Counted from the stretch's first letter, positions 6,256 to 48,960 are shown. The stretch is DNA of 64,000 bases from an uncultured delta proteobacterium (GCA_963713755.1 CAVQMW010000005.1:1455119-1519118), one strand, 5' to 3'. The notes: generated by a model not told the origin, from the sequence alone. Program-made: numbers and translations.

Positions 6256-7977
6256 TTAGGTGACTATAGGTTGTAAGACCCCACTTCCGTCGATATAGTG
6301 GCCAAACGCCGATAGGACTTCGGCTTGGGTCTTCGTGGGGGTTTCCATGCGCCGGATAGGCTTTATCGAGCCTTTGTTGAGCATCAGCACCGAGTGAAGA
6401 TGCCTCATATCATCCATTACATCTTCCGCCGTTCGGTTTATGCCCGCTGACATCAGCTTGAGTTCCAATCTGCGCAAGTAGGTCATTGCCACAACGCATG
6501 TAAACAAATGGCAGCGGATCTTGCTATCGGTCCAGTGCCTGATAGGACACGTAGCGACCAGATCGTCGTTCTTGCTGAGACGAAAGCGCTCTTCCACTTG
6601 CCATCTGTCCAGACTGGCCTCTACGATTTCACCGGTGGTCCAATCCGTATTGTCCGTGATGATAATGTTTTTTCCAAACAACGCCTCCTTTTTGCCAATC
6701 CTGTATACGTCCTTACGAAAGCTCATTGATAGGACGTCTTCGGCCTGATTGAAACTGAGGATATAAAAATCCGAGGAAACGTTCATCCTTTCGCATAACC
6801 GCACATAGCGCTCCTGGATCGTTTCCGGATTTTTCCAATGCGGGGCCTTTTCACGCACCTTGTTGCGCATGGCAAGCAGCTGCTGGCGGATCGAATCCAT
6901 CTTGTCGCGGAATGTATAGGTCTGCTTGCGTGCCGTTGCCGGATTATAGGTCACCACCACGGTTCGCTGTTTACCCCAGTATTCGCCCTTGCTGCGATAA
7001 ACAAGCAGTTGATCCTCAGCACTTTCGTCTTCAACCAGCTGTCTGTTTTTTGCAGTATCCACCGGCTCAAAACGGTCAAGTGACGTTGCGGCTAGATCCT
7101 GAGCAAAATAGGTCGAATAGGTGGTTACGAAATGAATCCGCGCATGCTCGTCTATCCATGCATAATTGCCGTCCGAGTTCATTCCTTTGTCAATGACAAC
7201 GGTTAACCGTTCTTTTGTTTTGTGCAGCCCACACACGACACCGAACATTTCATCCATGATCGATTCAAATTGCTTGCTGTCATGTACGTTGCCTGGATAC
7301 ACGCAGTAATATAGCGGCAGCCTTGATTTTCGGGCCACCAAAAGACCGAGCCCGATTTGCCGCAAATAGTGCCTGCCTTCCTTGTTTTTCCCTCGCTTGG
7401 CAAGATCGGATTGGGTATGGCTGGACAAAATGTAGTAGTTGGTGGTGTCGAACAAAAGGCAGTCCGCACTTGGAGAATCGCGTTGCCAGATCTGCTCGAA
7501 AAAGCCTTGGGCTATCGTTTTCAGGGCTTTTTCACCGACCCGATCCCACTTTTCCCAGAAGCGTTTGCTGGTCAGTTCGCCCAGATCCACAGGCCGGATA
7601 TGCTGAATCGCCGTCCGGCTGTACCACCGGGACAATCGGTTTTTGCTGACCGCCTCAACCATCCGGTTCCATACGCAATATAGAAAATATTCTCCGACAG
7701 TAGGACCCTTTTCACGGTCGGCTCTCGGCACTACGCTGTCAACGACAGCGGCAAGATCAATATCGTAGTTGATCTGCTTGGCCAGCCACAAGGCCCCGAA
7801 CTCTTCGACCTTTATGTTCACCGGCCCGTGTTCTTTGCCGGTCGCATAGCCGGCAACACGCTCCGGGGAACCGACGTAGATCTGGGAAACCACTTTGGGT
7901 TTGCCCTCGACGCGGGCAATTTCCCGGACGTACAGGTAGGGTCTTCCTTTTTTCTTTTTGACATGGAAGTGCGACAT
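6256..7977 (-). CDS. IS4/IS1634-family DDE transposase.
   Basis: 573 aa. The N-terminus is MSHFHVKKKKGRPYLYVREI. Candidate DDE residues lie in LLFDTTNYY, VVIDKGMNS and RWQVEERFRLSK (the YREK-like signature of IS4-type enzymes). Confidence 0.75.
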   Translation of the reverse strand: MSHFHVKKKKGRPYLYVREIARVEGKPKVVSQIYVGSPERVAGYATGKEHGPVNIKVEEFGALWLAKQINYDIDLAAVVDSVVPRADREKGPTVGEYFLYCVWNRMVEAVSKNRLSRWYSRTAIQHIRPVDLGELTSKRFWEKWDRVGEKALKTIAQGFFEQIWQRDSPSADCLLFDTTNYYILSSHTQSDLAKRGKNKEGRHYLRQIGLGLLVARKSRLPLYYCVYPGNVHDSKQFESIMDEMFGVVCGLHKTKERLTVVIDKGMNSDGNYAWIDEHARIHFVTTYSTYFAQDLAATSLDRFEPVDTAKNRQLVEDESAEDQLLVYRSKGEYWGKQRTVVVTYNPATARKQTYTFRDKMDSIRQQLLAMRNKVREKAPHWKNPETIQERYVRLCERMNVSSDFYILSFNQAEDVLSMSFRKDVYRIGKKEALFGKNIIITDNTDWTTGEIVEASLDRWQVEERFRLSKNDDLVATCPIRHWTDSKIRCHLFTCVVAMTYLRRLELKLMSAGINRTAEDVMDDMRHLHSVLMLNKGSIKPIRRMETPTKTQAEVLSAFGHYIDGSGVLQPIVT

Positions 7978-8665: not shown

Positions 8666-9699
8666 GGTGGGTATCCATACGTCTCTCGTAACGGTATGCT
8701 GGCCGTATGCAAGAGAAAATTCGTCATCCGGTACCTGGCGTCGATTACCCACGCACACTGATTGAGTTTGAGGAGTGGTTTTCTTCCGAGGAGGCCTGTC
8801 TCCAGTACCTTCGTCGTCTGCGATGGCGTTATGGGTTTCGATGCCCTGGGTGCGGCAGGCAGAAAGCATGGCCCACCAACAGGGGCGAGCTTCGGTGTGC
8901 CGCATGTCAACGCCAGACTTCGCCGACTTCCGGTACGATTTTACAGGGGACCACCAAGCCCCTTCATCTGTGGTTCCATGCGATGTGGCACATAACCAAC
9001 CAGGAGTTTGGGGCCAGTGCGTTGGGACTTCAAAGGGTCCTCGGGTTTGGCAGCTATCAGACGGCATGGGCGTGGCTTCACAAGATGAGACGTGCGATGA
9101 TTCGTCCGGGTCGCGAGAAACTTAGCGGTCTCGTGGAGGTGGATGAGACCTATGTCGGCGGCCTGGAGGAAGGCGCACACGGCAGACATACCGAGAAGAA
9201 GGCCATCGTAGTAATCGCCGTGGAGATCCACGTGCCGATGGGGTTCGGCCGAGTCCGGCTTGGACGCGTCCCCGATGTTAGCGCTGAAAGCCTCGTGTCG
9301 TTTGTGCGCGGGGCCATTGAGCCCGGTTCTGTTGTGCACACCGATGGCTGGAAAGGATACAATGATCTCCCCAAGTTGGGCTAAACTCGCAAGAAGACAA
9401 TCTTATCGTCCAGTCCAGAGCCAGCCCACGTCGTGATGCCAGGCGTCCACCGGATAGCAGCGCTGTTGAAACGATGGCTGTTGGGGACGCACCAAGGTGC
9501 GACAAGTGCGCGGCATCTGGACTATTACCTCGACGAATATACGTTCAGGTTTAACCGGCGCACCTCAAGATCACGAGGATTGCTCTTTTATCGTTTACTG
9601 GAACAGGCGGTGCAAACTGATCCAACGTCCTATGCGAATATGATTGGAGGCAAGCCCCGCACTCCAAAAGTCTAACGAGAGAGAAGTGGATACCCCCCT
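8666..9699 (+). mobile_element. IS1595-family insertion sequence (inactivated copy).
   Basis: Imperfect terminal inverted repeats match at 20/26 positions: GGTGGGTATCCATACGTCTCTCGTAA (8666-) against the reverse complement of 9673-9698, GGGGGGTATCCACTTCTCTCTCGTTA. The flanking 8-mers are TTATCCTA (8658-8665) and TTATCCAA (9700-9707), a 7/8 match. Confidence 0.7.
8707..9675 (+). pseudogene. IS1595-family transposase interrupted by one in-frame TAA.
   Basis: ORFs 8707-9384 and 9433-9675 are in the same frame, separated by TAA at 9382-9384. The zinc-ribbon CPGCG..CAAC, the ISXO2-like core and HTDGWKGY lie before the stop. VMPGVHRIAALLKRWLLGTHQG and LDEYTFRFNRR lie after it. Confidence 0.85.
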
Positions 9700-13533: not shown

Positions 13534-14643
13534 TCAGAATGAAAACCGGATACGTAAAAACTGGCAGTTATCAGGTAAAATCCATATAGTACTTGGCCTT
13601 GGAGGCTCGGTACCTGTGCGGGGATTTTTCTCTACGATTCCGAACAGTGCAAAAAATTCCGAGATTGGATCGATGTCCCACGAGATGTCCTCACATCTGA
13701 GTTTCACTGAGTTAACCACCTGCTGGACGATGCGCATGAACTTCTTTCCAATGTATTTCGATTTTCGTCGATTGAATCGAAATACATATTCATCCAGATA
13801 GTTCTGAAGGTATTTGGGTTCAAATCGGCCCTGAAAGGTACTGTTCATTAGCCTTTTAACAAGGGAAGCCACCAGATGGACTCCATAGAGGCTATCGTCT
13901 TGAAAACCTGATACTGATTGGTTTATCCGGACGTGGTCTTGGTCTTTGATAATTGATGGATAGCTCGACCAGGAGTCGGTAACTATGGTGCTGCCGGGTT
14001 CGACATTTTCATCGATAAAAGTTTCCAACGAAAACGATGAATAGTCCAACATGACGTGCAGACGGATCCGGCCAATTTCCGGCAGTTCCGGATCGGGTTC
14101 AACGGCGGCGACTACAATGGTTTTATGCTCAGCACCACGGCCGCGCTTGCCCGATCTTCGGCCTCCGATGACAAATTCATCCACTTCGACCCGGCCAGAT
14201 AGTTTTTCCCTATCCGTGCGAATGTTACAGCGTCTTAACTTTTGTAACCAACTCCAGGCGGTTTGGTAGCTACCAAGGCCTAAAAGTTCTTTCAGATTGA
14301 CCGCATTGACGCCGGATTTTCGGGTGGTGAACCACCACATGGCCTTGAACCAATAGGTGATTGGTTTTTTCGAGCTATCCATTATCGTGCCGGCGGTCAG
14401 TGAGTGCTGATGATTGCACTTGGTGCAGATGTACAGGTCTCTATTGCTGTGCCAGTAACTGCCGTTTCCACACTTTTTGCAAGTGAAACCACCAGGCCAT
14501 TTCATTGCAAATAAATATTGGTAACATGCTTTCGGATCGGAAAACCTCAAATCAAATTCGATCTCGGATTTTGGAAAATCCTCTGAAATGTTGAAAACTT
14601 CCATCATGGCCTCCTTTTTTTTGATTTGAGGCCAGTTTATCAT
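13534..14643 (-). CDS. IS1595-family transposase (intact copy).
   Basis: 369 aa. It has a zinc ribbon (CKKCGN..CTKCNH), the ISXO2-like core LGLGSYQTAWSWLQKLRR and LDEYVFRFNRR. It is collinear with the broken copy at 8707-9675 but clearly divergent from it. The element ends were not resolved. Confidence 0.85.
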   Translation of the reverse strand: MINWPQIKKKEAMMEVFNISEDFPKSEIEFDLRFSDPKACYQYLFAMKWPGGFTCKKCGNGSYWHSNRDLYICTKCNHQHSLTAGTIMDSSKKPITYWFKAMWWFTTRKSGVNAVNLKELLGLGSYQTAWSWLQKLRRCNIRTDREKLSGRVEVDEFVIGGRRSGKRGRGAEHKTIVVAAVEPDPELPEIGRIRLHVMLDYSSFSLETFIDENVEPGSTIVTDSWSSYPSIIKDQDHVRINQSVSGFQDDSLYGVHLVASLVKRLMNSTFQGRFEPKYLQNYLDEYVFRFNRRKSKYIGKKFMRIVQQVVNSVKLRCEDISWDIDPISEFFALFGIVEKNPRTGTEPPRPSTIWILPDNCQFLRIRFSF

Positions 14644-41036: not shown

Positions 41037-42137
41037 GTGGCAAGCGGCAAGACCCAGCCCATGGTGCAGTTCAAAGGCATTTTTAAGCGGTTTGGCAAAG
41101 TGACCGCTGTGGAGAAAATGGATTTTGAAATCGAAGAGGGGACTCTGGTGACCCTGCTGGGGCCGTCAGGGTGCGGAAAGACCACCCTGCTGCGTATGGT
41201 GGCCGGGCTGGAGGAGCCCACCGAGGGGGATATCTTCATCAATGGCGTGCGGATCAACGATACCCCCATCCATCAGCGCAACCTGGGAATGATCTTCCAG
41301 AACTACGCCCTGTTTCCCCACAAAACCATTTATGAAAATGTCGCCTTCGGCCTGAAGTACCGCAATGTTCCTAAGGCGCAGATCCCGGATAAGGTGTCTC
41401 GGGCGCTGGAGATGGTCCGCTTGCCGGGGGTGGAAAAGCGCATGCCCAGCCAGCTCTCCGGCGGACAGCAGCAGCGCATCGCCATGGCCCGGGCGATTGT
41501 CATCGAGCCGGACGTACTGCTCATGGACGAGCCTCTCTCGGCCCTGGATGAAAATCTGCGGGAAGAGATGCGGCGGGAGGTGGACAACCTTCAGCGGATG
41601 CTCGGCGTCACCACCATTTTCGTCACCCACGACCAGCGCGAAGCCCTGAGCATGTCGGACAAGATCCTGGTGATGAAGGAGGGCCTTAAGCAGCAGGAGG
41701 GCGACCCCGAAACGGTTTACAATGAACCGGTTAACCATTTTGTGGCCGATTTTCTGGGCCACTCCAATTTCATCAACGGCGAGGTCGTAGAGGTCGGCAA
41801 CGATCATCTTAAGGTCAGGATCGAAACCGGCGATCTCCTCCTGGCGAAAAACAAAGGCGGATTCTCGACGGGGGATCCAGTGGAGATCATCGTCCGCGCC
41901 CAGCGCTTTGACGCCTTTCCCAGAGATGAATTCAAACCTGCGGAAGGCATGAACCATTTTGAAGGGCGCATCAAGGACCGCAGCTACATGGGCGGAGAGG
42001 TGAGCTATTTCATCGATTTGGGCGCCGGCCGTGAAATTCATATCATCAGCATGATGCGCACCCGGCTCTACAACATCGGTGAGACGGTGAGTGTGCAGGT
42101 CTCCCCCCACCACTGCCACCTGATTCCCCTGGCCTAA
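41037..42137 (+). CDS. Pot-type ABC ATP-binding protein (PotA-like).
   Basis: Walker A GPSGCGKTT, signature LSGGQQQRIAMARA, Walker B LLMDEPLSALD and a C-terminal TOBE-like domain. The start is GTG 41037 or ATG 41061. Confidence 0.85.
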   Translation: MASGKTQPMVQFKGIFKRFGKVTAVEKMDFEIEEGTLVTLLGPSGCGKTTLLRMVAGLEEPTEGDIFINGVRINDTPIHQRNLGMIFQNYALFPHKTIYENVAFGLKYRNVPKAQIPDKVSRALEMVRLPGVEKRMPSQLSGGQQQRIAMARAIVIEPDVLLMDEPLSALDENLREEMRREVDNLQRMLGVTTIFVTHDQREALSMSDKILVMKEGLKQQEGDPETVYNEPVNHFVADFLGHSNFINGEVVEVGNDHLKVRIETGDLLLAKNKGGFSTGDPVEIIVRAQRFDAFPRDEFKPAEGMNHFEGRIKDRSYMGGEVSYFIDLGAGREIHIISMMRTRLYNIGETVSVQVSPHHCHLIPLA

Positions 42138-42140
42138 GCC

Positions 42141-42395
42141 TGACTGTTGGACACACTTGACACTGGGGGTGTGTTGTCATGCTTCGAGCTTATCGGCTAC
42201 AGGCGCGACTACTGGATCTCCGCCCCCCGCCTAAAGCCTGCGGGGGCAGGCCCCGCGGAGATGACGTGCAGTCAGTAGGATCCGTCATTCCCGCGCAGGC
42301 GGGGCACGCAGTGAAGCTTTAGCGCTATCCATACTCAATATATTGAATTTATTTCGTAAATACTGCCCACAGTGTCAAGTGTGGCCAACAGTCAG
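42141..42395. mobile_element. 255-bp MITE (non-autonomous element) with 30-bp terminal inverted repeats and a 9-bp target-site duplication.
   Basis: Left TIR is CTGACTGTTGGACACACTTGACACTGGGGG (42141-42170). The reverse complement of the right end (42366-42395) is CTGACTGTTGGCCACACTTGACACTGTGGG, a 28/30 match. GGCCTAAGC flanks both sides (42132-42140 and 42396-42404, 9/9). No ORF is inside. Confidence 0.85.
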
Positions 42396-42442
42396 GGCCT
42401 AAGCAACGGTTTTTTTCTGGGACACCTGCCGGAGTCAAGGCC

Positions 42443-43276
42443 ATGGCCGACACGGTTGAAAACATCCTGGGCTCTCGGGTCCAGCACGGTCCTCACAACC
42501 AACGCATCTACCTGATGAAATTGGGCCCCCGGCATACGCCGGGACTTGTGGCCGCCTTGGATGATTTGGCCCGGCAAAAGAGTTACGGGAAAATCATTGC
42601 CAAGATTCCGGCCTCGGCCTGGGAGCCTTTTGAACGCGCCGGGTATCGAATCGAAGCGCGGGTGCCGGGATTGATCCGCAACCGCCATGAGGCTCTGTTC
42701 GTGGCTAAATATCCGGTCCCACGGAGAGCGCGGGAGTACCGGGACCCATTCGATTCAGCCTCTCCTCGACCTCCGAATTCCATTCGCGCCAGACAATTGC
42801 GCCCAAAAGCGCAGCCCTCCCATCCGGTTTCTCCCCTGATACCCGACGATGTCGAGGATATGCGCGCGATATATCGCCGGGTATTCCGCTCCTACCCCTT
42901 TCCCATCGACAACACTCACTACCTGAAGGGGATGATGAGGGCCGATGTTTTGTACTACGGGGTTCGAATGGAGGGGAGCCTGGCGGCCATCGCCGGCGCT
43001 GAGATGGATGCAACGGACCGCAACGTGGAGATGACGGACTTTGCCACCCGGCCTTCCTGGCGGGGCCGGGGTCTGGCCAAATCCCTGCTCACCCACATGG
43101 AGCGAACCTGCCGCGGGCTGGGTTTTTTAACCGCTTACACCATTGCCCGGTCGGCATCCGCGGGGATGAATCGGGTCTTTCAGTCGCGGGGATACCACCA
43201 GGGCGGGCGGCTCATTAACAACACTCAAATCAGCGGTAAAATCCAAACCATGACCGTTTGGTACCGCCGGCTATAG
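42443..43276 (+). CDS. AblB-family GNAT (putative beta-lysine N-acetyltransferase).
   Basis: 277 aa. Motifs: QHGPHNQRIYLMKL, YGKIIAKIPASAW, IYRRVFRSYPFPIDN, NVEMTDFATRPSWRGRGLAKSLL, YTIARSASAGMNRVFQSRGY and NNTQISGKIQTMTVWYRRL. The pattern is recalled from the AblB/YodP family, not searched. Confidence 0.65.
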   Translation: MADTVENILGSRVQHGPHNQRIYLMKLGPRHTPGLVAALDDLARQKSYGKIIAKIPASAWEPFERAGYRIEARVPGLIRNRHEALFVAKYPVPRRAREYRDPFDSASPRPPNSIRARQLRPKAQPSHPVSPLIPDDVEDMRAIYRRVFRSYPFPIDNTHYLKGMMRADVLYYGVRMEGSLAAIAGAEMDATDRNVEMTDFATRPSWRGRGLAKSLLTHMERTCRGLGFLTAYTIARSASAGMNRVFQSRGYHQGGRLINNTQISGKIQTMTVWYRRL

Positions 43277-45890: not shown

Positions 45891-46113
45891 TCAGGACACT
45901 ATGCCCGAGTATGTCTGTTTTTTCCAGGCATATGATCCAGTGGTTTCTAATTCAAGCCCCGGGCCTGGATGCATTCCGTTTGATCTCAGACGGCGACTAG
46001 CGTAGATTGGCGAGTATCGGTTGATCGTTTTCAAATGCTTTGCTGACTGGGTTATCCGGGGCAAGGGATGTATCCCGCCCCGCCTGCCACCCACACCGAG
46101 AAAAGGAGAGAGT

Positions 46114-47760
46114 ATGAAGGTACCTAAGGTATTGTCCCGAGTCATCCTCGCAACGGTCGTGGCCCTGCTGTTATGCCCCTTGGCCTCGGCCCAGGAGCTG
46201 GCCAAAGAGCAGGTGCTGATGATCGCATTCGATGCTGGGGATGCCAAGAATCTCGATCCCCACCGGGCGGCCAGCACCGTGGATCGCTCCACGGTGGACC
46301 CCATCTTCAACGGGCTGGTGCGCTACCCTCCGGGACAACAGGTGGATGTGGAGCCGGACCTGGCGGAAAGCTGGCAAACCTCCCCCGACGGCAAGACCTG
46401 GAGCTTCAAGCTGCGCCAAGGGGTGATGTTCCATCCCTATGAAAAACAGCCCCAGGGCTATGAGCTGACCGCCGCGGATGTGGTCTATTCCCTGGAGCGG
46501 GCCGCCAATCCCGATTTTTCCTCCTATGCCGGGGAGTATACCGGGCTGACCTTCAAGGCCGTGGATGACTACACAGTGGAGATCGGTATCCAGCAACCCG
46601 TTTCGGCGCCCCTCTTCCTGGCCAAGTTTGCCAACTATGCCGGGGGCTTTGTCGTGTCCCAAAAGGCCATCGAGGAGATGGGCAACGAGTGGTTCCAGAC
46701 CCATCCGGTGGGTACGGGACCCTTTATGTTCCAGTCCTACGAACCCCGCCAGGAGATCACCTTGGCGGCCAATCCCGGCTACTTCCGCGGCGCGCCGATC
46801 CTGGAAAAGCTGGTGATCAAGTACATGCCCAATGTGGCTTCCCGGGAATTCGGCCTGCGCACCGGCGAGCTGCACGTAATCGAAGGCTTGAACGAGAGCA
46901 AATGGGTGGAGAAGATCGCCACCTTCCCCGAGGTTTCGGTGACCCCCTTCGGCCCTTGTGAAACCCAGATGCTGCACATCAACATGGCCAATGAAGTCTT
47001 TCAGGATATCCGGGTGCGCAAGGCCTTAAGTTATGCCATCAGCCGCGGGGAGGTGGCCGCTTTTATGGGCGAGAGCTTGGCCGAGCCCATCTATTCGGCG
47101 GCCATGGCGCCCCCGGCGCCCGGCGCCCTGACCCAAGCGGAAGCCGAAGCGGCCGGGGTGGTCTACGAGGGCGATATCGAGAAAGCCAAGGCCCTGCTCC
47201 AAGAGGCCGGTAAATCCGATCTGAGCTTCGAGGTGGTGATCAGCGAACTGGCCACCAGCTACCGTAAGCCCCTGGTAGGCCTCCAGGCCCAGGTGAAGAA
47301 GGCCGGTATCGACATGCAGCTCAAGGTGGTGGACCACGCCTCCTTTCACAGCCTGATCCGAAATGATGCCAGCCCCTTGGTCTATTATGCCTGCTGGCGG
47401 CCCAATGCCGATGTTTTCCTGACCCGCTTCTACCACAGCGCTTCGGAAGTGGTGAAGGGCGCCAAGCCGGACACCAACTTCTCCCATTACGGGGCCGTGG
47501 ACGCGGACGGAGACGGGACGGTCGACACCATCGATGCCCTCATCGAGCAGGCGCGCTTCGAATTGGACGGTGACAAACAGGCCGCCCTCTGGAAGGAGGC
47601 CCAGATCGAACTGCTGAAAAATGCGGCCCTAGTGCCCATCATCCGGCTCAAGTACGCCTTTCCCATGAAGTCCTACGTGGATCTGGGACATCCCCTGGAG
47701 TTCAGCTGGCAAACCTACTCCCCCCAGATCACGGAACAGACCCGGATTCTGGCCCACTGA
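46114..47760 (+). CDS. Family-5 (OppA/DppA-like) periplasmic substrate-binding protein.
   Basis: An AAGGAGAG RBS precedes the ATG at 46114. Signal peptide MKVPKVLSRVILATVVALLLCPLASAQE; SBP_bac_5-like body. Confidence 0.8.
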   Translation: MKVPKVLSRVILATVVALLLCPLASAQELAKEQVLMIAFDAGDAKNLDPHRAASTVDRSTVDPIFNGLVRYPPGQQVDVEPDLAESWQTSPDGKTWSFKLRQGVMFHPYEKQPQGYELTAADVVYSLERAANPDFSSYAGEYTGLTFKAVDDYTVEIGIQQPVSAPLFLAKFANYAGGFVVSQKAIEEMGNEWFQTHPVGTGPFMFQSYEPRQEITLAANPGYFRGAPILEKLVIKYMPNVASREFGLRTGELHVIEGLNESKWVEKIATFPEVSVTPFGPCETQMLHINMANEVFQDIRVRKALSYAISRGEVAAFMGESLAEPIYSAAMAPPAPGALTQAEAEAAGVVYEGDIEKAKALLQEAGKSDLSFEVVISELATSYRKPLVGLQAQVKKAGIDMQLKVVDHASFHSLIRNDASPLVYYACWRPNADVFLTRFYHSASEVVKGAKPDTNFSHYGAVDADGDGTVDTIDALIEQARFELDGDKQAALWKEAQIELLKNAALVPIIRLKYAFPMKSYVDLGHPLEFSWQTYSPQITEQTRILAH

Positions 47761-47805
47761 TCCATGGCGGGATGCTAACCTTCAATTCAATTCCCCTGAT
47801 TAACT

Positions 47806-47906
47806 CCGCGGAGATGGCGTATGGTCGATAGAGTTCGTCATTCCCGCGGAGGCGGGGCACGCAGTGGAGCTTTAGCGCTATCTATTCTCAATATATTGAA
47901 TTCATT
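47806..47906. repeat. Second copy of the 101-bp core found inside the MITE (core at 42253-42353).
   Basis: 87/101 identical overall and 66/71 over the 3' block CGTCATTCCCGCG.AGGCGGGGCACGCAGTG.AGCTTTAGCGCTATC.AT.CTCAATATATTGAATT.ATT. It lies in the 258-bp gap between the SBP and first permease genes. Confidence 0.85.
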
Positions 47907-48018
47907 ATTAAATTAACACTCGCGGAGTCAAATGTGAGGCAGGGCTATCCCTTGATGAGAGGGGAGTTGCAAGGCTCCCGCAACCTGCTCCTGAATCAAG
48001 CCCGTAAAGTGGTCTGCC

Positions 48019-48960
48019 GTGTTTAAATACGCCATTCGCCGCATTCTGCAGAGCATCCCCATTCTGATCATCGTCTTGACGTTGGTCTTTGTGGTGGTAC
48101 GCGTGCTGCCGGGGGACCCGGCCGTGGCGGCCCTGGGCGACTACGCCAGTGAAGAGGCGGTCCAAGCCCTGCGGATGAAGCTGGGACTCAACGAACCCAT
48201 CTGGCTCCAGTATCTGCGCTTCCTGGGGCGTCTGGCCCGGGGGGACTTGGGAATTTCGGCCATTACCGGCTATCCCGTGGCCAAACAGGTGCTGCAGGTG
48301 CTGCCTTACACCCTGGAGCTGACCTTTTGCGCCATTCTTTTCGGCTATCTCCTGGGGGTGCCTTTGGGGATCTCCGCGGCGGTGCACCGCAACAGCTTCA
48401 TCGACTACTTCAATCGCATTTTCTCCCTGCTGGGCCTGTCGGTGCCGGCCTTCTATCTGGGGATCATTCTGATTCTGCTCTTTTCCATCATCTTTCCCAT
48501 CTTTCCGGTGGTGGGGGGCGGCGAGTTCTGGGACCTGAAGGACAACCTGCGGCACCTGGCCCTGCCCGGATTCTCCCTGGGGCTGCTGATGATGGCCTAT
48601 GTGACCCGCATGACCCGCTCGGCGATTCTGGATGTGCTCCGGGAGGATTATGTGCGCACAGCCCATGCCAAGGGCGTCCTGGAGCGCCTGGTGCTCTACA
48701 AGCACGTACTGCGCAACGCCCTGATTCCCATTGTGGCCCTGGGCGGGTTGTATGCCGTGGTGCTCATCGGCTCGTCGGTAATGGTGGAGATCGTCTTCTC
48801 CCGTCCCGGGCTGGGCAAACTCATGGTGGGGGCCATCAAACAGCGGGATTACACCACCCTGCAATCGGTGATGGTGATTTATGCGGTGCTGGTGGTGCTG
48901 ATCAACCTGGCCACGGATCTGATTTACGGGCTTATCGATCCGCGGATTAAATATGACTAA
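48019..48960 (+). CDS. Dpp/Opp-type ABC permease (DppB-like).
   Basis: 313 aa. N-terminus MFKYAIRRILQSIPILIIV; motif YVRTAHAKG. Confidence 0.85.
   Translation: MFKYAIRRILQSIPILIIVLTLVFVVVRVLPGDPAVAALGDYASEEAVQALRMKLGLNEPIWLQYLRFLGRLARGDLGISAITGYPVAKQVLQVLPYTLELTFCAILFGYLLGVPLGISAAVHRNSFIDYFNRIFSLLGLSVPAFYLGIILILLFSIIFPIFPVVGGGEFWDLKDNLRHLALPGFSLGLLMMAYVTRMTRSAILDVLREDYVRTAHAKGVLERLVLYKHVLRNALIPIVALGGLYAVVLIGSSVMVEIVFSRPGLGKLMVGAIKQRDYTTLQSVMVIYAVLVVLINLATDLIYGLIDPRIKYD

Follow-up and report, generated by a model that had tools for sequence, protein, structure and literature searches.

Among the small inverted-repeat elements of bacteria, the Correia elements of Neisseria are flanked by a TA duplication, have no known transposase and provide a general precedent for the processing of repeat duplexes by RNase III. 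In the IS50 subgroup of the IS4 family of insertion sequences (IS), the ends follow the consensus CW------Y---CA-A--W-, the direct repeats measure 8-9 bp and the usual size of the element is 1350-1550 bp (PMC2266710). The outside end of Tn5 has the sequence CTGACTCTTATACACAAGT (PMC2566895). Another element of the IS4 family, ISRm22, inserts into palindromic repeat (REP) elements (PMC1525189) and is placed in another subgroup, IS4Sa (PMC2266710). The locus described here lies in a 64-kb stretch of DNA from an uncultured delta proteobacterium (GCA_963713755.1, CAVQMW010000005.1:1455119-1519118; the whole of this stretch is referred to as the window) and holds a short element, without a transposase gene, between the genes of an ABC transporter ATPase and an acetyltransferase. 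We hold with high confidence that it is a miniature inverted-repeat transposable element (MITE) of the IS4 family, IS50 (Tn5-like) subgroup, mobilised in trans by a transposase of a clade possessing a DruA/DUF4338 domain.

Like other bacterial MITEs, the element is short, non-coding, bounded by repeats, flanked by a duplication and self-pairing, and it occupies an intergenic position between co-oriented genes. It differs from the Correia elements in that its parent IS family can be identified and its duplication measures 9 bp. With IS50/Tn5 it shares the features of its ends and the length of its duplication, the differences being that it is non-autonomous and that the terminal repeats of its family are 30 bp long and contain an inner block that is conserved (GGACACACTTGACAC).

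Boundaries and Structure of the Element

The presence of a repeat-bounded element in the window was confirmed. It extends from 42140 to 42395 on the plus strand and is delimited by its terminal inverted repeats and a 9-bp target-site duplication. The left repeat (42140-42169, plus strand) is CTGACTGTTGGACACACTTGACACTGGGGG and the right repeat (42366-42395, minus strand) reads CTGACTGTTGGCCACACTTGACACTGTGGG as its reverse complement, with 28/30 positions identical and mismatches at positions 12 and 27, on which the sequence itself, a repeat finder and a pattern search agree. Inverted pairs matching at 28/30 positions within 400 nt would be expected by chance ~7e-8 times in 64 kb, and the repeat pattern had zero matches in any shuffle of the window. 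The duplication, GGCCTAAGC, is perfect over 9 bp according to the repeat finder, with its left copy at 42131-42139 and its right copy at 42396-42404. An element with 30-bp repeats of this identity and a perfect 9-bp direct repeat had been proposed in a first-pass annotation of the window made from the sequence by a model; the repeats were reproduced by the pattern search and the element and its duplication stand, with their boundaries moved by one nucleotide, such that the element begins at 42140 and measures 256 bp (not 255 bp from 42141) and the left copy of the duplication begins at 42131 (not 42132).

The only open reading frames (ORFs) inside the element are of 43 and 47 aa, for which no homologues were found and no gene call is recorded, so that the earlier description of the element as containing no ORF is true in substance. 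A blastx search against the transposases of the family identified no transposase remnant in the element. Its length and terminal repeats, its 9-bp duplication and the absence of a transposase gene are thus all those of a MITE. Its RNA fold is strong (-120 kcal/mol, z -7.2) and is due mostly to base pairing between the terminal repeats. Two hairpins had previously been described in the interior, of which the second, CCCGC-GCAG-GCGGG at 42290-42303, is as reported, and the first, given as 16 nt, is a hairpin of 17 nt (GCGGGG-GCAGG-CCCCGC, 42240-42256). The second hairpin forms part of a region at 42253-42304 (plus strand) which also possesses the imperfect palindrome CCGCGGAGATGACG ... CGTCATTCCCGCG, and this is the portion common to a second, partial copy described below. 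Neither the pattern search nor an end profile found a third repeat-like site with matching ends in the window.

Family Assignment of the Ends

The first 19 nt of the ends resemble the outside end of Tn5, a lead which was then tested. Both window ends begin with CTGAC and agree with the IS50-subgroup consensus at 7/7 informative positions, the left end is identical to the Tn5 outside end at 14/19 positions, and the duplication of 9 bp falls within the 8-9 bp range of the subgroup. The first-pass annotation had named the IS4 type, beside the IS1 and IS256 types, among the families in which 9-bp duplications occur, and the fit of the ends to the IS50-subgroup consensus bears out the first of these.

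A search for the exact end pattern in 185,579 species-representative genomes and in viral contigs gave nothing, relaxed patterns of the end and of the interior had no match in viral contigs, and BLASTN of the element against the PLSDB plasmids gave no match. The exact window-type end was found in five metagenome contigs, where it bounds two other, unrelated interiors, namely a different element of 240 bp (L001, L003, L004) and an interior of a third type (L002, L005). Relaxation of the end pattern to CTGNNNNTNGGNCACAYTTGACAC allowed the identification of 40 loci in genome bins assigned to the Desulfobacterota, Acidobacteriota, Nitrospirota, Planctomycetota, Spirochaetota, Calditrichota, Bacteroidota and others. 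Most of these loci carry CTGAC, and 36 of the 40 have an A at position 12, which the pattern leaves unconstrained; this shared base indicates that the loci represent homologous ends and not chance matches.

A profile hidden Markov model was built from 58 distinct ends of other genomes, with the window left out. Within the window it matches only at 42140-42170 (E 4.6e-9) and 42395-42365 (E 5.1e-9), which are the two terminal repeats of the element, both of them of the left-end type. The closest left end belongs to a Desulfomonilaceae IS (L042) and is identical at 33/36 positions, and together with the profile matches this places the sharing of ends with an autonomous IS at the level of the family. 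As the ends belong to a large Tn5-like IS family of sediment bacteria, the element is real but ordinary in kind.

Autonomous Relatives and Their Transposase

Complete relatives of 2338-2396 bp were identified at nine loci (L020, L022, L025, L039, L041, L042, L044, L046, and L049), each encoding a single ORF of ~760 aa that starts ~50 nt from the left end. The product possesses the Pfam domains DruA (PF14236, E 2e-29), Tnp_DNA_bind, DDE_Tnp_1 and Dimer_Tnp_Tn5 and matches the NCBIfam model NF033590 for IS4 family transposases (E 1e-125). Its residues 300-750 align to residues 11-467 of the solved Tn5 transposase (phmmer, E 3e-41), making it homologous over the whole length of the latter, including the DNA-binding and dimerisation domains. 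The catalytic signatures are also kept, with the aspartates of the DTT and DRExDI motifs as well as the Y-R-E-K motif (Y..R...E...K...K) present. Where it differs from the Tn5 transposase is in an extra N-terminal DruA/DUF4338 domain of ~300 aa, DUF4338 having been described as GNAT-like (PMC10853773). Because of this domain, the relatives are larger (2.34-2.40 kb) than the 1.35-1.55 kb of the IS50 subgroup, a range which comes from a 2008 survey, is descriptive and is inapplicable to a MITE. Most of the full-length relatives examined make 9-bp duplications; perfect examples are found at L022 (GGCTTGACC), L039 (GGCCTTGCG) and L049 (CCTTTGAAG) and also at the short elements L024 and L037. The view that the window element is non-autonomous and was mobilised by a transposase, already taken in the first-pass annotation, agrees with its family ends, with these duplications in its relatives and with the evidence for insertion given below.

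At E <= 1e-30 the clade comprises at least 6333 protein clusters of uniform architecture, and most of its proteins occur on contigs of 2.4-3 kb, as is expected of multicopy insertion sequences in assemblies. The DruA part was covered by 0/587 hits to PLSDB plasmids, and the family transposase matched no defence system in a PADLOC scan. The proteins are annotated merely as "IS4 family transposase" or "hypothetical protein," and no description of a fusion of DruA/DUF4338 with a Tn5 transposase was found in the literature searched, ISfinder not being among the sources. The parent clade is thus abundant in uncultured anaerobes and annotated, but not characterised within the resources searched. As a tentative suggestion, the MITE may possibly be the by-product of a very large and apparently undescribed IS4/IS50-like clade, defined by the DruA/DUF4338 fusion and by CCCCC-N9-GGGGG or hairpin targets, which has given rise to many MITEs in anaerobic sediment and soil phyla. 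The 2.4-kb copies of this clade and its MITEs break up metagenome assemblies, and the Pfam DruA match in its transposases could be misread as a Druantia defence gene.

Target Choice and Insertion at the Stop Codon

To describe the targets of the family, a logo was made of the flanks of 68 IS and MITE ends (L013-L056). C occurs at positions -14 to -10 in 44, 43, 50, 56, and 43 of the 68, and G at position -1 in 43 of them. Given a duplication of 9 bp, the pattern amounts to a CCCCC-N9-GGGGG target with C-runs outside the duplication on both sides, in contrast to Tn5, for which the reported preference lies within the target. In a transposase fold that has received much study, such a preference lends itself to testing, and the extra DruA/DUF4338 domain might direct the target choice of the clade. 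Many of the family targets are short GC-rich hairpins, as in L022, where the duplicated GGCTTGACC stands between CGTCATTCCCC and GGGGAATCCAG. The family, whose insertions fall in GC-rich palindromes or hairpins across many genomes, resembles ISRm22 in this, and is set apart from it by the IS4Sa assignment of the latter and by the window insertion, which is itself not in a hairpin.

At the window locus, the codons ATT CCC CTG (Ile-Pro-Leu) of the upstream gene give ATTCCCCT and put a CCCCT half-site (42126-42130, plus strand) directly 5' of GGCCTAAGC. The site was probably picked for this C-run 5' of the 9-bp target. In the proposed mechanism, the transposase would bind both 30-bp ends and excise the element, integration would proceed via a 9-bp staggered cut at GGCCTAAGC, and repair would duplicate the 9-mer carrying the stop codon of the upstream gene.

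This gene (41037-42137, plus strand) encodes a PotA-like ABC transporter ATPase with a TOBE_2 domain, as identified using Pfam and NCBIfam. Its TAA codon at 42135-42137 lies within the left copy of the duplicated target, as the first-pass annotation had stated, and since the duplicated 9-mer includes this codon the gene is unharmed. Aligned with an orthologue of 84% identity, the ATPase has its C-terminus at the identical column, from which it follows that the stop codon is ancestral and, as had also been proposed, that the coding sequence is intact. Removal of the element and one copy of the duplication reconstructs an empty site (...ATTCCCCTGGCCTAAGCAACGGTTTTTTT...) with a spacer of 40 nt between the ATPase gene and the ATG of the acetyltransferase gene, to which the insertion has added 265 bp, made up of the 256 bp of the element and the 9 bp of one copy of the duplication.

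The two genes had been described as formerly adjacent members of an operon. This holds for the present lineage, in view of the 40-nt spacer, but does not extend to two relatives (L010, 4068-6727; L011, 2889-6830) in which two to three extra genes lie between the ATPase and an AblB-like acetyltransferase, encoding Pro_racemase and Amidohydro_3 proteins and, in one of the two, also an aminotransferase. The window acetyltransferase is ~50% identical to those of L010 and L011, whereas the ATPase reaches 84%. The perfect duplication indicates that the element arrived after the ATPase-acetyltransferase junction of this lineage existed. The apparent operon gap at this locus is therefore to be seen as a recent mobile-element insertion that has left both genes intact.

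Two of the full-length relatives show a separate arrangement. In L041 (196-2591) the IS is centred in a perfect 46-bp palindrome, with GCGGGGATTCGCCCCCGCCGACG on one side and its reverse complement on the other. The palindrome is flanked by T/A runs, like a bidirectional terminator, and a direct 9-bp duplication is not recognisable; L044 is similar. A simple 9-bp staggered insertion gives no explanation of this arrangement.

Copies of the Element and the Partner Transposase

A second copy of the right half of the element, which had been overlooked in the first-pass annotation, was found at 47806-47936 (plus strand). It is identical to 42253-42383 at 104/131 positions (79%) without gaps (E 3e-27), and the similarity extends into the inner portion of the right repeat, which is degenerate here, and then stops. 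On the basis of this alignment we read it as a decayed and truncated copy of the MITE. It is placed in an Opp/Dpp-like operon, between the genes of a solute-binding protein (SBP_bac_5, 46021-47760) and the first permease (48019-48960), and its conservation is good at a hairpin, CCCGC-GGAG-GCGGG, and over the stretch AGCTTTAGCGCTATC..CTCAATATATTGAATT.

Three further assemblies carry this insertion at the identical site, these being the metagenome-assembled genome (MAG) GCA_049671625.1 and two Logan assemblies. In all three, the downstream contig begins within the element, at window position 42284 or 42320, and in GCA_049671625.1 the upstream contig follows the element to 42297 (its left 158 bp) and then continues into different sequence. 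Breaks of this kind are, as indirect evidence, the behaviour of a repeat found at more than one locus.

The upstream contig of GCA_049671625.1 (L009, 4263-4373; JBATVF010000407) passes after 42297 into an unrelated AT-rich sequence (TTAATCAGGGGAAAGTCAAC...), with the junction formed by ...CATTCCCGCGCAG on the side of the element and TTAATCAGGGGAAAGTC... beyond it. The motif TTCCCCTGATTAA at this junction also borders the partial copy at 47.8 kb (window 47791-47810), in the opposite orientation. This suggests that the L009 junction is either a third locus or a variant of the repeat that has undergone rearrangement.

A partner transposase on the source contig of 1.84 Mb was not found among the best 120 family homologues (P0121-P0240). 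The contigs of a closer homologue, P0122, carry left ends identical to that of the window at 32/36 positions, no better than L042, and those of P0124 gave no comparable end match. The autonomous partner had been placed elsewhere or considered extinct, and the former is consistent with these data.

Other Short Derivatives and Origin of the Element

Eight further non-autonomous derivatives with ends of the family, 207-355 bp in size, were identified in other genome bins, and one of them (L013) retains a C-terminal remnant of the transposase (blastx E 2e-5). Most relatives carry a distinct right end (ACCCACAC). Both ends of the window element are of the left-end type (GG[A/C]CACAC), and two left-type ends are also found on one full-length relative, L025.

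The same family end with the same short non-coding interior was also seen at six loci (L014, L017, L021, L038, L045, and L052) of CTSoil_012, an Acidobacteria MAG, and another such shared combination at three loci (L016, L019, and L047) of MAG-1293, a member of the Thermodesulfovibrionales. These loci are mostly at contig ends, and they look like amplified non-autonomous derivatives in other phyla.

A number of observations weigh against the assignment of the window element as an IS50-type MITE mobilised in trans. The copies seen directly in the 64 kb are one intact and one decayed and partial, with more inferred from the contig breaks. The window contains no autonomous copy with matching ends, and the closest left end, at 33/36, comes from a lineage that is distinct at the family level (L042). 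An allele with the site empty was not found, the next homologue of the acetyltransferase being just 52% identical. As both ends are of the left type and no transposase remnant is present, simple internal deletion is no more than one possible origin. The target also departs from the habits of the family in that the right flank (CCGTT, read inward) misfits its preference and that the reconstructed empty site, considered as a hairpin, is no better folded than shuffles (z +0.9).

An alternative origin, which we consider rather unlikely, is that of a composite or captured element in which two left-type ends came to flank a REP-like hairpin module of the host and then became mobile, the copy at 47.8 kb being the resident module. 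The symmetric ends and the interior without a transposase remnant are in keeping with such an origin, as is the occurrence of the right half of the interior without terminal ends at 47806-47936. In addition, the interior hairpin CGTCATTCCCGCGCAGGCGGGG resembles the hairpins targeted by the IS family (e.g., CGTCATTCCCCGGCTTGACCGGGGAAT in L022), and the boundary motif TTCCCCTGATTAA is common to the 47.8-kb copy and the alternative junction of L009. However, the similarity at 47.8 kb enters the inner part of the right repeat, where GAGTCAAATGTG and GTGTCAAGTGTG agree at 9/10 positions in register over GTCAAGTGTG, which argues for descent from an element that carried the repeat, and the two left-type ends of L025 mean that symmetric ends require no special origin. 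Whether it arose by capture or by deletion, the present element would still be a MITE mobilised by a transposase.

Possible Effect on the Downstream Gene

The downstream gene (42443-43276, plus strand) encodes a GNAT acetyltransferase of the AblB type (putative beta-lysine N-acetyltransferase), which scores 269 bits with TIGR03827, above the cut-off of 205. The insertion may possibly affect this gene, through polarity or through processing of the RNA. The present effect of the element would be passive, in that it would act as a strongly self-pairing spacer of 265 bp between both genes, and it could thereby alter read-through or create an RNase III-type processing site. Differences in expression between the transporter and the acetyltransferase are to be viewed in light of the insertion.

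It is unlikely that the element has been co-opted as a regulatory insert whose promoter, or processing or attenuation structure, now controls the acetyltransferase gene. Such a role is suggested by the TTGACA hexamer found in each terminal repeat and pointing inward, with the left one facing the acetyltransferase gene, and by the occurrence of the same hexamer upstream of the transposase ATG in the relatives. In a read-through transcript, moreover, the duplex of the 30-bp repeats would be a plausible substrate of RNase III. In ten of ten full-length left ends, TTGACA is followed by 17 nt, a hexamer starting with TA and then the ATG, and this order most likely identifies it as the -35 element of the transposase gene. 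In the MITE, the hexamers 17 nt past TTGACA are TGCTTC (left) and GAAATA (right), neither a matching -10 element, and a promoter and terminator scan of 41900-42600 detected no promoter-like or terminator-like site. The promoter effect via TTGACA that the first-pass annotation had raised is thus not upheld.

A reading of the sequence as ancestral structured intergenic DNA (REP-like or of the bacterial interspersed mosaic element (BIME) type, a regulatory RNA or a terminator region) bounded by repeats through coincidence is largely refuted and can be given next to no weight, since the very strong RNA fold (z -7.2), the related sequence in the intergenic region of another ABC-transporter operon and the fixation of the sequence in 4/4 assemblies covering the site are set against a perfect 9-bp duplication adjoining the 28/30 repeats, repeats that fit the IS-end profile of unrelated genomes (E ~5e-9), the absence of the interior from the orthologous loci of relatives, where conserved intergenic DNA would be expected to carry it, the lack of an Rfam match (whole window at gathering thresholds, both copies at permissive E-values) and the lack of a detectable terminator.

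Gene Order and Other Mobile Elements of the Window

By Pfam and NCBIfam, the genes around the MITE are ordered as an IclR regulator, two ABC permeases, a solute-binding protein, the PotA-like ATPase, the element, the AblB-type GNAT acetyltransferase and a divergent LysR regulator.

Three transposase-related proteins encoded in the window, one of the IS1634 family and two of the IS1595 family, were considered as partners of the MITE and rejected, as their ends do not match; this is in line with the earlier statement that no transposase of the window has ends resembling those of the element. Their genes are at 6256-7977 (IS1634 family, minus strand), 8707-9384 (IS1595 family, truncated) and 13534-14643 (IS1595 family). 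They are located in a stretch of the window at ~5000-26000 with a GC content of 0.46-0.51 compared to ~0.58 elsewhere, which is broken by the ilvD region at 16-18 kb. This low-GC stretch is probably a horizontally acquired, IS-rich island.

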